From: a virus
Direction: 5' to 3' (one strand)
IMG/VR virus record: IMGVR_UViG_3300018906_000001
Length of the DNA stretch: 64,000 nucleotides
Shown here piece after piece: positions 29,549 through 62,023 of the stretch (its first letter is position 1; each line of letters opens with the position of its first letter). Position numbers and translations under genes: made by a program. The notes beneath the pieces are model-generated. The model made no database searches. It saw nothing but the letters and a program-made list of their open reading frames with translations, and was not told the origin of the DNA.

Positions 29549-30598
29549 TTATCTACGTTTTTGCGACTTTTCCATTTCTTTCTGCTGTTTTTCATAGCTT
29601 TCGCTAACCTCTTTTACCCACCAACCACGATCTCTTGGAGTTAAGTTTAACACCTCTTGAAGAGAACTGAAAGGAGCCTGTTCACCAAAAGTTAAAAACT
29701 TTGCAATTTTGTTAAAGTACTCTGCTGTACTGCCTATTTCTTCGCTTTCTCTAGGTGCAGAAAGTAGAGACAAATAAAAGTACTCATACCCCATTCCATA
29801 AGCTAATGGAATGTCCCATTCAAGACCACATCTAGGACAATCCATCGGCACTTTTCTTTCCGGACCATAGATTAACTGAGACATCCGAGAAATGATTCTC
29901 TTAATATCCCGTGAAGAAGCACCTCGATATAATTGCCCTTTAATTGGTGGGTCTGTAAACTGACCCAAGAATACTAGATCCAGTGCCGTCTCTGGGTTCG
30001 TAATTGCTGGCACTTGCCCAAACCGATAGGGGGATAAATGCACTACATCAATCCGGACATCCCCCAGCAGAATTCCATCCGCCAACTCTACCCGCACTAT
30101 GGGCGGATAATCCTCCCCATCGGGTAGCACTCGGACTTCAACGCTCATCATGTCGTGCGCCGCCGTATTTTCCCCACCTCGAATCTTAAACCGCTCCTCA
30201 CAGGGGCATTCCCCAGTTAAAGGCACGAGTGGACTCATTCCGATCGCCCGCACGTTGAGGACAATGACTAAAATATCTGCCAAGTGCATACTTGCAATGA
30301 ACTTGCTCACACTCAGCCCAAACTGAGCCGCCAAATCCTTAAGTGGGTATCCCCCAATCTCTAGTAGTATTTCCGGCAGAAACTGGGTAATGACGCGATT
30401 ATATTTATCTGGGCGTGTCCTGTTGGCGTCTTCCAGTTCCCCCAGAATTAACTCGTGTCTCCCAATGAAACGGGCAAGGGTAAAATCCCTCAGTCTGTCC
30501 CCATTCGGCATCCAAACTCCCAAGGGAAGGGTTTGCCCTAACTGTTCAAGTTCAAGAATCTCATAGGGGAGGGGAGTAAATGTGTGATTGGCAATCAC
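29549..30598 (-). CDS. baseplate hub / tail assembly chaperone-like (T4 gp26+gp51-like)
   Basis: CPC...CPRCG zinc motifs and C-terminal EVLNLTPRDRGWWVKEV reminiscent of gp51-type chaperones. Confidence 0.5.
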   Translation of the reverse strand: MIANHTFTPLPYEILELEQLGQTLPLGVWMPNGDRLRDFTLARFIGRHELILGELEDANRTRPDKYNRVITQFLPEILLEIGGYPLKDLAAQFGLSVSKFIASMHLADILVIVLNVRAIGMSPLVPLTGECPCEERFKIRGGENTAAHDMMSVEVRVLPDGEDYPPIVRVELADGILLGDVRIDVVHLSPYRFGQVPAITNPETALDLVFLGQFTDPPIKGQLYRGASSRDIKRIISRMSQLIYGPERKVPMDCPRCGLEWDIPLAYGMGYEYFYLSLLSAPRESEEIGSTAEYFNKIAKFLTFGEQAPFSSLQEVLNLTPRDRGWWVKEVSESYEKQQKEMEKSQKRR

Positions 30599-30888
30599 CT
30601 TCTTTCACCTGCTATTTCTGCTTTTAGAGAACGAATGCGATCGCGTTCTTCCTGGACTGTCGTCAATTCCAAGCAATTACTAATGCCTTGACACCACCCT
30701 AGATGGCGATGCAACTTATCCTCACCCCAGAACCCCGCAAAAGAACAGATCTGAACTAGCGCCCATTTAAGATACGCCGGCGTAGAAAACTTAGCCTGTT
30801 CATCTGAGCGAAGCCCAGGATACGCGGCATCTAACTTTTCATAGAGCTGTCTGGCGGCAAGATACGCCAGTTTTTGAGTGTTGGTCAT
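30595..30888 (-). CDS. hypothetical protein
   Basis: Translationally coupled operon; LHRHLGWCQG. Confidence 0.7.
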   Translation of the reverse strand: MTNTQKLAYLAARQLYEKLDAAYPGLRSDEQAKFSTPAYLKWALVQICSFAGFWGEDKLHRHLGWCQGISNCLELTTVQEERDRIRSLKAEIAGERR

Positions 30889-31217
30889 TTTGAAAAACCC
30901 TTTGGATTTGGGGTGTCCAGTTGCAGAGCCTGCATCATCTCAGGAGACACGAGGAATTGCCCCTCTTTTTCAAACCAGTCCCCCGACTCTTCCAATGTGG
31001 CGTCAAACTCTCCATCCATTGCTCGTCGTGCCAATGCCTCAAGACCGAGCGATCGCAAGTCATGAATCAACTGAGTAATCGGCGTCGCCAATTTACTTTT
31101 GTAATCGTCATAATAACCATCTCTTGCCCGCTCAATCATTTGAGCCAGCCGAGAATCGTTCGCCAATTCGAGTGCCCTCGCCAATCGCTCAGTCGTAGGA
31201 AGTTTATTTTCCATCAC
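30885..31217 (-). CDS. hypothetical phage protein
   Basis: RARDGYYDDYKS...GEFDAT pattern; TGATG overlap with the upstream gene. Confidence 0.75.
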   Translation of the reverse strand: MMENKLPTTERLARALELANDSRLAQMIERARDGYYDDYKSKLATPITQLIHDLRSLGLEALARRAMDGEFDATLEESGDWFEKEGQFLVSPEMMQALQLDTPNPKGFSK

Positions 31218-31229
31218 GGTTCTCCGTGA
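31214..31229 (-). repeat. dispersed palindrome site 8 (inside coding junction)
   Basis: Exact; encodes HGEP-stop and overlaps the next start. Confidence 0.95.
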
Positions 31230-31882
31230 CGACGAATTTCTTCTTCCAGTTGGTCAAGGAGATTAAGGATTCGCTCTTTTCCTGAAACTTGAGGGCGATC
31301 GCGTAACGCCTTGATTAGCTGGTACATTCCGGCGGATTCAAGCCCTGACGTTTCGTTGCGAACAATTGTGACGCCGTGACGAGCGGCATCAAGAATAGCT
31401 GCCTTGATTTTCTCCGTATCCTCAGGCGATCGCGTGGCTCTCGACACCAGGTGTACGCGAACATCCATATCCGACTCCACCAGATGACCAGCCTCCTGCA
31501 TCTTGCGAACTTCTCCGGCAAGTGTAAGGGGATACAGATCCGGGTACTGTTCTTCTAATCGATGAACAATGCAATGCACGGCCTTTAAACCCTCGTAGTC
31601 TTGGTTCTCACTGCGTTGCCGCGCCCAGTTCTCAGCCCAGACAGCCAATATTCGCAGTTCTTGCCAGTTAATATTAACAGTAAGATCAAAAGCAGGGTTG
31701 CAAGGTATCCCGGTACTGCCACATCCAGGGCAGTGCTTCAATCCTTGAGCCACCTCTGCTTGAGAATATTCGTATTCGCACAGGACGCATCGAGCGGCTA
31801 TTGTCATGCTTGTAATCAACTCACCACAACAAATATAAGGCATGGAAGCTATTTCTAGGAGCGATCGCGTAAATGGCAGCAA
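31214..31882 (-). CDS. zinc-finger protein whose last codons (HGEP*) are the dispersed palindrome
   Basis: RCVLC...CPGCG; INWQELRIL. Confidence 0.7.
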   Translation of the reverse strand: MLPFTRSLLEIASMPYICCGELITSMTIAARCVLCEYEYSQAEVAQGLKHCPGCGSTGIPCNPAFDLTVNINWQELRILAVWAENWARQRSENQDYEGLKAVHCIVHRLEEQYPDLYPLTLAGEVRKMQEAGHLVESDMDVRVHLVSRATRSPEDTEKIKAAILDAARHGVTIVRNETSGLESAGMYQLIKALRDRPQVSGKERILNLLDQLEEEIRRHGEP

Positions 31883-60396: not shown

Positions 60397-60418
60397 TAAG
60401 TAGCTTGTCGATACTTCA

Positions 60419-60434
60419 TCACGGTTCTCCGTGA
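60419..60434 (-). repeat. dispersed palindrome site 13
   Basis: Exact; upstream of portal. Confidence 0.95.
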
Positions 60435-60502
60435 CGCACTAAAAACTTACACAACCTTTCACCGGGGCTTTCTTGCAAAAGCTTCGGTTTTTTTTGTTAC
60501 CC

Positions 60503-62023
60503 ATGCCCAAAGTTCGATCTATCCAACGCGCTGCTGTAACCACCGTCCCGGCTCCTCGCTCTTTTACGCAAGGAGGAGATCGTCGCCTGAGTGTGTTAGG
60601 CGATCGCGTCCAAGGTGACAGCTTTGGCTCTTTTGATCCGCACAGCTTCTTCTATAAATCGCTTCAAGGGACGATTACCCCGGACGACTTGAAGCGAATG
60701 AGTCAGACGATTTTGTTTGACCGTGCGATCGAGCGAATTGGGAATGGGGTGGCGGCAATGCAGTGGACGGTTAAGCCGCCAGAGGAAGATAAGGAGAACG
60801 AGAAAGCCCATGAGAAGGCACAGCAGTTGGTTGCGGCATTAAAGCAACCAAACCAGGATATTCACGACACTTATACAAAATTTGTTAAGGCACTTGTAAG
60901 AGATTTACTGGTCTACGGAAGTGGGGTCGTGGAGCGGCAGCCGGGAATGGACAATAAGTCACAGCCTTTTTGGCTGTGGGCTGTAGATTCCACCAACATT
61001 AAGTTAGATCCTGACTGGGATGCGAGTCGAGAAGGGATTGATCCTCGATTTTGGTATGCGCCCAAGGGGTCGAAGCAGAAGGATTGGCGACCGATTTACA
61101 ACAAGAATATGTTCTTGATCCAGGCTCGCACCTCAACTCAAGATATCGTCCCCCCGTCTCCGGTTAGGCTTGCCTATGACGATATGAATGCTTGGCTGGG
61201 GCTGCATGGCTACCAGACCCGGACCGTGAATCAAGCGGTGCGTGACTACATGATTTCTCTCGAAAATGCCGACATAAATGAACTCGAAGCATTTAGGGAA
61301 TATTGGCGCACCCAAGTCGTTGGCATGGGCGAAATCCCTATAATTGGCGGGAAAGTTTCGGTTGTAAAGTTTGGCGCAAAGAATGATGAGGAATTATACT
61401 TAGGTTATACTGAGTACTTAACTGCACTCTTGGCACTACAGTTTGGGTTATCACATCGTGACTTCGGGTTGACCCACGACGACAGTTATGCGACTGCTGA
61501 TGTATCGCAGTCACACTCCTTCCAGGACGCCATTCTTCCTATTGCTCAAGCGGTCATTGAGCATATAAATAACAAGGTGATCAATTTTTATGCAGAGGGT
61601 TTTAGTATCTCTCTTGCAGATGATCAGCCTACGAAAGAAGTTGATGAAGCTAATCGGGCAAATGTTCTTTATCAGACTGCGAAGCTGGCAACTAGGAACG
61701 AGGGACGCCAAATGGTTGGACTTCCTCCCTTATCTGGGGAAGATGAGTTTGCGGGTGGTCCAGAGCCGATGCCAGGAGAGGAAGGTGAGGAACAGCCTCC
61801 TAGTGGCAAGGTGAAAAAGGAGGAAGAGGGGAAAGAGGAAGGGAAAGAGGAAGGGAAAGAGGAAGGGAAAGAGGAGGGCAATGGTAATGGGAATAAAAGC
61901 AAGAATGGGAAGAAACCGCCGAAGATGAGCCCATCGGCTGGGAAACAGGTGGCAGCTAAAGCCAAGAAGGTAATGATTCAAGCTTCGGCGAGAGACGAGC
62001 CGATTCAGCTAAGTTTGTTCTAG
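60503..62023 (+). CDS. phage portal protein
   Basis: LVRDLLVYGSGVVE, LWAVDS, SPV, ALQFGLSHRDFG, DAILPIAQ.I..HIN, TRNEGRQMVGLPPL..ED; (GGGAAAGAGGAA)x4 at 61829-61876. Confidence 0.85.
   Translation: MPKVRSIQRAAVTTVPAPRSFTQGGDRRLSVLGDRVQGDSFGSFDPHSFFYKSLQGTITPDDLKRMSQTILFDRAIERIGNGVAAMQWTVKPPEEDKENEKAHEKAQQLVAALKQPNQDIHDTYTKFVKALVRDLLVYGSGVVERQPGMDNKSQPFWLWAVDSTNIKLDPDWDASREGIDPRFWYAPKGSKQKDWRPIYNKNMFLIQARTSTQDIVPPSPVRLAYDDMNAWLGLHGYQTRTVNQAVRDYMISLENADINELEAFREYWRTQVVGMGEIPIIGGKVSVVKFGAKNDEELYLGYTEYLTALLALQFGLSHRDFGLTHDDSYATADVSQSHSFQDAILPIAQAVIEHINNKVINFYAEGFSISLADDQPTKEVDEANRANVLYQTAKLATRNEGRQMVGLPPLSGEDEFAGGPEPMPGEEGEEQPPSGKVKKEEEGKEEGKEEGKEEGKEEGNGNGNKSKNGKKPPKMSPSAGKQVAAKAKKVMIQASARDEPIQLSLF

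Follow-up and report, generated by a model that had tools for sequence, protein, structure and literature searches.

A jumbo contractile-tailed cyanophage from desert biocrust related to a plasmid of a cultured Nostoc strain

Introduction

Growth by accretion, with virion genes scattered among other genes, is the usual pattern in jumbo phages, and P1-type phage-plasmids combine a conserved phage core with a variable repertoire of plasmid genes. Both jumbo myoviruses whose virion genes are scattered and phage-plasmids belong to established kinds of element. Few jumbo phages are known from filamentous, soil-crust or symbiotic cyanobacteria. The Microcoleus jumbo myophages My-WqHQDG and My-ElHQDG were recovered from metagenomes, exceed 200 kb and have filamentous non-heterocystous cyanobacteria as predicted hosts; they were described as lytic and without plasmid signatures (bioRxiv 10.1101/2023.04.12.536658). 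The element treated here resembles them by description only, namely in size, myovirus type and kind of host. It was identified from a 64,000-nucleotide stretch of viral DNA (IMG/VR record IMGVR_UViG_3300018906_000001; this whole stretch is referred to as the window), which is part of an intact contractile-tailed jumbo cyanophage of about 243 kb from desert biocrust.

The sole named relative of this phage is pC052_F, a circular replicon of 223,442 bp from a pure culture of Nostoc sp. C052 (NZ_CP040278.1), which was deposited and annotated as a plasmid. A second relative, here called G001, is an environmental genome of 188,942 bp (IMG/VR UViG 3300036939_000082, 98% complete according to CheckV). 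An earlier inspection of the window without database searches (the sequence-only reading) had described myovirus morphogenesis genes dispersed over both strands of a genome saturated with the palindrome HIP1 (GCGATCGC), and had proposed a long-resident temperate jumbo cyanophage or phage-plasmid. In the following, the virion genes, the larger replicon, the HIP1 content, the relatives and the probable lifestyle of the phage are analyzed.

Extent of the replicon

The window was 100% identical over 21 kb to a biocrust contig of 117,735 bp (JGI 3300018917 Ga0193611_1000007) and 99.94% identical to the ENA contig k141_373227 (ERZ27286105; 220,340 bp). Its MT-A70 gene was also found on a JGI biocrust contig of 243,297 bp (JGI 3300018910 Ga0193598_1000012). 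With window proteins recovered exactly on the 220,340- and 243,297-bp contigs, the genome exceeds 200 kb, the size by which jumbo phages are defined. An exact look-up placed the sheath protein on 18 metagenome contigs; six belong to the 0.2-1 Mb class (all larger than 200 kb), and independent assemblies yielded contigs of 242-245 kb made up of phage genes. The assignment to a jumbo cyanophage made by the sequence-only reading was thus borne out, both by these contigs and by the cyanobacterial metagenome-assembled genomes (MAGs) described below. Source runs were biocrust metagenomes from 2017 and 2021; of the sheath words sampled, about half to three quarters were also present in soil runs from 2025. 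No RNA run was present among the sequencing runs listed as carrying window DNA.

Three contigs begin at one common point, and by coordinate arithmetic the 243-kb contig passes through it. The end of the 243-kb contig falls within the tape measure gene, a gene that a different contig contains intact, and the contig breaks differ between assemblies. The breaks and the shared start are compatible with a circular or permuted map. Gene lists covered about 176 kb of the replicon of about 243 kb, and in these lists neither host housekeeping genes nor host junctions were found.

Packaging, head and tail genes

Genes for a terminase and a capsid, which the sequence-only reading had proposed to seek on the full replicon, were both found and are intact. 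The large terminase TerL (760 amino acids (aa), GpA_ATPase) is encoded at 170.6 kb of k141_373227, about 54 kb before window base 1. Directly past base 64000 lies a gene for a coiled-coil protein of 567/586 aa, which is scaffold-like by position, followed 1.6 kb past the window end by a 356-aa capsid protein whose homologues carry PF17236 SU10_MCP. The AlphaFold2 (AF2) model of the capsid protein (pLDDT, the confidence score of the model, 77.9) matched the capsid proteins of SPO1, SU10, T5, Mic1 and HK97, which identifies the HK97 fold; the family profile gave nothing significant in the PDB by sequence. A head-tail adaptor follows the capsid gene within 3 kb of the window end (phrog_442, 2.2e-9). 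Including the portal protein inside the window, the packaging and head set of TerL, portal and HK97-fold capsid protein is complete on the same DNA.

Inside the window, the sequence-only reading had placed five virion genes, and all five gene calls coincide with it in position and strand (Table 1). Portal, sheath, tube and the baseplate protein J were confirmed by profile or fold matches. The call of the portal gene, with 502-506 aa, was unambiguous. The open reading frame of 1004 aa gave no match in Pfam and was identified as tail sheath protein by its family profile and predicted fold. The profile of 29 homologues matched, in the PDB, 9ezm (7.5e-19), the sheath of the Streptomyces contractile injection system (CIS; 3e-13), Afp3 and T4 gp18 (5e-6). 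Every top Foldseek match of the AF2 model (pLDDT 85.7) was a sheath, including those of T4, cyanophage A-1(L) (8kee), P1, phi812, PVC and pyocin. In the model, the sheath core is built from the N- and C-termini, and residues of about 200-700 form an insertion of repeated beta domains (about 500 aa). Within this insert (residues of about 200-660), four to five copies of a beta domain of about 60-90 aa with the motif TGxGTxF...VGD..Y were recognized; these domains gave weak matches to the N-termini of PHROG tail-fibre families and also matched a "distal tail protein gp20" chain. In the modelled sheath, the beta domains would decorate the exterior of the tail.

The 182-aa protein encoded next to the sheath gene is, with moderate confidence, the tail tube protein. 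The profile of its 28 relatives matched Afp1 (1.4e-5), T4 gp19 (1.2e-3) and Pvc1 (3e-3), and three of the 28 reached Pfam Phage_T4_gp19 (PF06841). The J-type baseplate wedge protein was 61% identical to its counterpart in pC052_F and 51% identical to that in G001. At 29.5 kb, where a gp26/51-like gene had been proposed, coordinates and strand proved correct and the gene belongs to the core of the clade (45% identity to pC052_F, 36% to G001; it adjoins J in pC052_F). The identity of its 349-aa product as a gp26/51-like hub protein is suggested as a lead only. Besides the PHROG match, 24 of its 30 language-model neighbours were clusters of PF12322 T4_baseplate/Gp51_C (at 0.93); the protein gave no match in Pfam and nothing significant in the PDB by sequence.

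The tape measure protein has 7312 aa (PF10145); its gene starts about 7 kb before window base 1 and runs away from the window. Sheath, the tube next to it, J wedge and tape measure make up the contractile-tail set, to which the hub is added at the level of a lead. Tape measure proteins carrying PF10145 are also encoded by pC052_F (8170 aa, 20766-45278) and G001 (6321 aa, 134444-153409). By the rule of 1.5 Å of tail length per tape measure residue, proteins of 6321-8170 aa predict contractile tails of about 0.95-1.2 micrometres. To our knowledge, no longer tails have been reported. No paper on giant tape measures of Nostoc elements came up in literature searches.

Two further groups of genes neighbour these virion genes. 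The 137-aa gene upstream of the sheath gene occupies the same position in pC052_F and G001 (54% and 41% identity). The three genes of 236, 127 and 385 aa that follow J gave no Pfam or PHROG match and no tblastn match in pC052_F or G001; their position suggests variable genes for the baseplate periphery or for fibres.

Other genes of the replicon encode a full sigma-70 factor, NrdJ (class II ribonucleotide reductase), MazG, an RNA ligase, GH19 and M15 wall hydrolases, a ResIII helicase, a C5 methyltransferase, members of the Pfam families Tad6 and BubE, and several copies of TnpB. A LAGLIDADG gene seems to split NrdJ into parts of 415 and 378 aa, an arrangement suggestive of a homing endonuclease or an intein-type insertion.

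Table 1. Features of the 64,000-nucleotide window
Feature	Position	Strand	Evidence or remark
Candidate gp26/51-like baseplate hub protein, 349 aa	29549..30598	-	phrog_150 baseplate hub 0.0045; language-model neighbours
Lineage-specific accessory block, 18.1 kb	30599..48721	.	Between hub and J; pC052_F has 378 bp there
Clade-conserved gene, 176 aa	33246..33776	+	53% and 38% identity to relatives
Staphylococcal-nuclease-domain protein, accessory	37530..38267	-	PF00565 1.5e-17
Tyrosine recombinase (XerC/D or integrase type)	38403..39365	-	PF00589 1.9e-21; PF02899 2.9e-9
AIPR-family protein, accessory, abortive-infection type	44703..45920	+	PF10592 2.8e-18
TnpB (IS605 OrfB / Cas12f-like) mobile element	46402..47826	+	PF01385 1.3e-16; PF07282
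Baseplate wedge protein, gpJ/gp6-like, 394 aa	48722..49906	+	phrog_6 5.3e-13; PDB baseplate J-like 9gtp_1K 1.9e-6
Three genes 3' of J (236, 127, 385 aa)	49906..52293	+	Position
Probable tail tube protein, 182 aa	52395..52943	-	Family profile; adjoins sheath gene in 3/3 genomes
Tail sheath protein, 1004 aa	52967..55981	-	Family profile, predicted fold
Clade-conserved gene, tail-associated, 137 aa	56034..56447	-	Just upstream of sheath gene, same orientation
Portal protein (HK97-type)	60473..62023	+	Pfam Phage_portal PF04860 3.6e-23; phrog_12 3.9e-27
IS607-type MerR-serine recombinase	62984..63595	-	PF00239 4.1e-17; PF00376; between portal and scaffold/capsid genes
HIP1 sites	211..60607	.	71 copies, 1.11 per kb

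Relatives and clade

Homologues of the sheath protein formed about 40 clusters on contigs of 182-252 kb (largest 251,714 bp). Cluster lengths were 993-1011 aa, apart from two outliers of 893 and 1147 aa, and the core genes keep their full length across these clusters at 40-85% identity. Among GTDB species genomes, the sheath was found only in MAGs of filamentous cyanobacteria, assigned to Allocoleopsis, Richelia, Thermoleptolyngbya, Stenomitos, Crinalium (188,586-bp contig), Leptolyngbyaceae cyanobacterium and Phormidesmis (counted as seven genera), plus one unclassified Cyanobacteriota bacterium. For the window phage itself, habitat and composition point to Microcoleus or Allocoleopsis as candidate hosts. 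No meaningful tblastn match of sheath or TerL was obtained among 50,697 GenBank phages. Megablast of 48.0-62.1 kb against phage and plasmid collections and tblastn of the portal protein against the phage collection gave nothing. The clade is an undescribed group of elements of 190-250 kb of filamentous cyanobacteria, and the phage is a new, apparently family-level member, apparently without a cultured or described phage relative.

The replicon of the window, pC052_F and G001 share a core of about 15-20 genes at 36-62% identity and little else. With pC052_F, the hub-like protein, J, tube, sheath, the 137-aa protein and portal are shared at 45-62% identity; outside the window, the likeness extends to the scaffold-like protein, capsid, TerL, giant tape measure and a pair of genes of 391 and 702 aa. 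pC052_F also encodes DndB, AIPR, TnpB/IS607, a sigma factor and NrdJ. It differs by the presence of a ParA/ParB operon, and by the lack of a ParM-like gene, Rep_1 and a tblastn homologue of the recombinase. Most of its accessory genes are unrelated, and about 14 of the about 75 genes of the window have a match in it. No paper that cites its accession number was found in literature searches, and its use as a cultured handle on this clade appears to have gone unnoticed.

With G001, core genes are shared at 36-51% identity; there they lie still farther apart, at 6 kb (J), 71 kb (portal), 88 kb (sheath) and 103 kb (hub). No PF00589 integrase and no ParB_N or CbiA/ParA family was found in this 98%-complete genome. 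IMG/VR labels it "provirus"; yet TerL and J lie in its first 8 kb and genes of the phage clade in its last 10 kb, without host flanks, and the label looks doubtful.

The Nostoc/Anabaena myophages A-1(L) and N-1 (65-68 kb) share with the present phage the contractile tail, filamentous hosts, the sheath fold (8kee) and richness in HIP1. However, their genomes are one quarter the size, their sheath proteins have about 500 instead of 1004 aa, and no tblastn similarity to the sheath or TerL of the window phage was detectable.

Accessory cassettes and dispersal of virion genes

As the sequence-only reading had held, the virion genes are separated by unrelated cassettes, namely the 18.1-kb block between hub and J and the IS607 insertion. 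The DNA between the virion genes encodes a tyrosine recombinase, an SNase-domain protein, AIPR, TnpB, a fragment of a restriction-modification S-subunit and an IS607-type resolvase; all of these except the resolvase, together with genes without assigned function, are contents of the 18.1-kb block. No tRNA gene was found in the window by ARAGORN.

Hub (-), J (+), tube (-), sheath (-) and portal (+) have identical order and strands in the window and in pC052_F. In pC052_F, these genes and the 137-aa gene (-), which lies between sheath and portal, are followed by the scaffold-like and capsid genes, all inside 20 kb, and only 378 bp separate hub and J instead of 18 kb. Since order and strands are common to a relative of 45-62% identity, the two-strand layout is not a product of decay. 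Dispersal stems instead from lineage-specific cassettes, that is, the 18-kb block, IS607 between portal and capsid, and relocated conserved genes. Among the latter are the 176-aa gene, which in pC052_F sits between sheath and portal and now lies at 33.2 kb, and a pair of genes of 394 and 718 aa, now past the head module.

Two observations concern the mobile elements. Depth over 29.4-49.0 kb was checked on Logan contigs only. In this check, contig depth over a stretch of some 150 bp upstream of TnpB (46034-46189) was about threefold that of the adjoining DNA in each of the four runs, and extra contigs were about 86% identical to this stretch. It probably represents the repeated end or the guide-RNA region of an IS200/605-type element that other DNA of the sample also carries. 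No Logan contig bridged a cassette deletion in this region; the lack of cover over about 34.6-37.9 kb in two soil runs carries no weight as evidence. After the portal gene (62121-63595), a 99.9%-identical strain carries genes of 196 and 176 aa, whereas the window carries a 220-aa gene and a MerR-resolvase of 203 aa.

HIP1 content and restriction sites

The sequence-only reading had estimated HIP1 at about one site per kb, with more than 60 copies against about one expected. Counting gave 71 exact copies in 64 kb, and dinucleotide-preserving shuffles (n=100) gave 0.64 +/- 0.76 copies with a maximum of 3. The ratio of observed to expected copies was 112 relative to base composition. HIP1 is far ahead of all other 8-mer palindromes of the window, the runner-up having just 8 copies, and the G+C content is uniform (41-50%). 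The claim that HIP1 occurs even in structural genes holds for sheath (2 copies), J, portal and the 137-aa gene (one each) and fails for tube and hub, which contain no exact site. Likewise, no exact site was counted in the genes for TnpB and the IS607-like resolvase or in the final 3.4 kb of the window.

All three clade genomes checked are enriched in HIP1, with 1.11 sites per kb in the window, 0.90 in pC052_F and 0.67 in G001. In ten sheath orthologues, HIP1 reappeared in homologous columns wherever the protein sequence allows it: Gly-Asp-Arg was encoded by GGC GAT CGC in eight of nine cases, Ala-Arg-Ser by GCG CGA TCG CC in all three cases and Ala-Ile-Ala by GCG ATC GC in three of four. The remaining sites in these orthologues are lineage-specific. 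Recurrence at synonymous sites argues that, in core genes of the phage, the motif is generated or retained at the level of DNA, and we infer that HIP1 arises in place by the DNA-level process that also acts on host DNA. According to the published view, HIP1 arises in place and its scarcity is a sign of recent arrival (PMC3025956); the HIP1-free TnpB and resolvase genes and the HIP1-free end of the window are consistent with this view.

HIP1 was also counted in control cyanophages. A-1(L), N-1 and the Planktothrix phage PaV-LD contain 39, 42 and 46 sites, corresponding to 0.48-0.65 per kb (0.57-0.65 for the Nostoc myophages A-1(L) and N-1, both of which we take to be lytic), and the podophages A-4L and Pf-WMP3 contain none. 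The step from HIP1 richness to a long-resident temperate element, taken by the sequence-only reading, therefore fails this control. HIP1 richness is not confined to resident replicons and does not distinguish residence from lytic passage. Papers dealing with HIP1 in cyanophages were not found in literature searches.

Two restriction-type sites are scarce in the window: GGCC occurs 9 times, with 166 sites expected from base composition, and GGATCC is absent, with 12.5 expected. The same scarcity was observed in pC052_F and G001, and it looks like restriction-site avoidance. A C5 DNA methyltransferase is encoded a few genes past the capsid module in this phage and in pC052_F (56874-57920). If its specificity were CGATCG, the phage would be tied to a methylation that overlaps HIP1.

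Maintenance genes and lifestyle

About 37 kb past the window end, a ParM/CorM-like actin of 399 aa is encoded on the minus strand (PDB CorM 9rmi, 6.2e-18; PF21522, 1.4e-7). CorM is a repurposed ParM, and ParMR systems are common on plasmids of Nostocales and Oscillatoriales (bioRxiv 10.1101/2025.06.27.661541). The actin gene is followed by a 190-aa gene, possibly a ParR-like partner, which is absent from pC052_F and G001. Near TerL on the same replicon, a gene for a Rep_1 rolling-circle initiator (1.5e-80) adjoins a YoeB toxin gene; Rep_1 may stem from a small plasmid that was captured, or may be the initiator of the phage itself. The search for replication and partition genes proposed by the sequence-only reading thus returned an actin of the ParM/CorM type and Rep_1, and no ParA/ParB in the approximately 176 kb examined.

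Judged from gene content, a phage-plasmid lifestyle is plausible, and we lean, by a little, towards the intact jumbo phage being an episomal phage-plasmid. It would persist as a low-copy, plasmid-like episome, and the maintenance modules of plasmid type that surround the conserved phage core would differ among members of the clade: ParA/ParB in pC052_F, and ParM/CorM-like actin, Rep_1 initiator and YoeB toxin in the present genome. Together with the recombinase, these genes keep the temperate or phage-plasmid part of the sequence-only reading plausible, although its argument from HIP1 was lost. The arrangement would be analogous to P1-type phage-plasmids, in which a contractile-tailed phage likewise carries partition and replication modules, a tyrosine recombinase and swapped maintenance modules; the present genome is 2-2.5 times larger, its hosts are cyanobacteria, and the likeness is one of gene content.

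Several points weigh against this lifestyle. The plasmid-type genes are not conserved across the clade: ParA/ParB were found only in pC052_F, and the ParM-like gene and Rep_1 only in the present genome. The ParM-like gene and Rep_1, absent from pC052_F and G001, may be passengers, and the missing ParA/ParB counts here as well. About 65 kb of the replicon lie beyond the gene lists, mainly 202-220 kb of k141_373227 and the part missing from that contig. G001 keeps its HIP1 density with no integrase, ParA or ParB detected. Actin- and tubulin-like proteins of jumbo phages can serve the organisation of the lytic cycle, and pC052_F could be a phage in the carrier state whose permuted genome was assembled as a circle. 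Some of these observations suit a strictly virulent form of this intact jumbo myophage, in which the plasmid-like genes would be passengers or act in the lytic cycle and HIP1 and the host-like composition would result from replication in HIP1-bearing hosts only, from phage methyltransferases or from selection. The HIP1 density of A-1(L), N-1 and PaV-LD, the lack of conservation of recombinase, ParM-like gene and Rep_1, the strong avoidance of GGCC and GGATCC, and a toolkit of lytic type (own sigma factor, NrdJ, MazG, RNA ligase, and the Pfam families Tad6 and BubE) all agree with virulence. Against virulence speak a ParA/ParB operon on a replicon whose record is a circular plasmid from a pure culture, a HIP1 density about twice that of the Nostoc myophages, the toxin-antitoxin-type gene and the recombinase, and the binning of clade contigs with cyanobacterial MAGs. 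We regard strict virulence as a real possibility, although on balance a rather improbable one.

An integrated chromosomal prophage, with the tyrosine recombinase of the window as integrase, would account for the PF00589 domain and for the "provirus" label of G001. However, host genes and junctions are missing from the gene lists of about 176 kb, independent assemblies consist of phage genes over 242-245 kb, the recombinase has no tblastn homologue in pC052_F and its Pfam domain PF00589 is absent from G001, G001 is bounded on either side by phage genes and yielded no integrase, and pC052_F is a separate circular replicon; we consider integration quite unlikely. It is scarcely credible that an ordinary plasmid or chromosome carries these genes as decayed remnants, or as a contractile injection system or tailocin that lacks a capsid. 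The profiles of sheath and tube do match proteins of Afp, PVC and the Streptomyces CIS as well, but the same DNA encodes an intact portal, adaptor and large terminase as well as an intact HK97-fold capsid protein, and the core genes are full-length in all of the roughly 40 clusters. The sequence-only reading had named decayed remnants without capsid or terminase as the case that would overturn it, and TerL, the HK97-fold capsid protein and the adaptor contradict that case. A capsid-less injection system or tailocin was rejected on the presence of capsid, portal and terminase.

Implications

A wider picture is offered tentatively, as a possibility we would not yet bet on: a family-level clade of jumbo cyanophages living as low-copy plasmids that swap ParAB and ParM-like systems around a conserved virion core, with tails of about 1 micrometre built from decorated sheath subunits of 1004 aa, DNA whose HIP1 signature can no longer be told from that of the host, and pC052_F as the first cultured member. 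For the use of HIP1, the results mean that its density alone is unsuitable for calling a cyanobacterial element "resident". The occurrence of HIP1 in synonymous sites of phage structural genes, across lineages with 42-55% protein identity, bears on the origin of the motif. The environmental contigs of 190-250 kb are now tied to a replicon in a cultured Nostoc strain, and pC052_F opens to laboratory tests the lifestyle of these phages (plasmid prophage or carrier state), the very long contractile tail predicted for them and the origin of HIP1.

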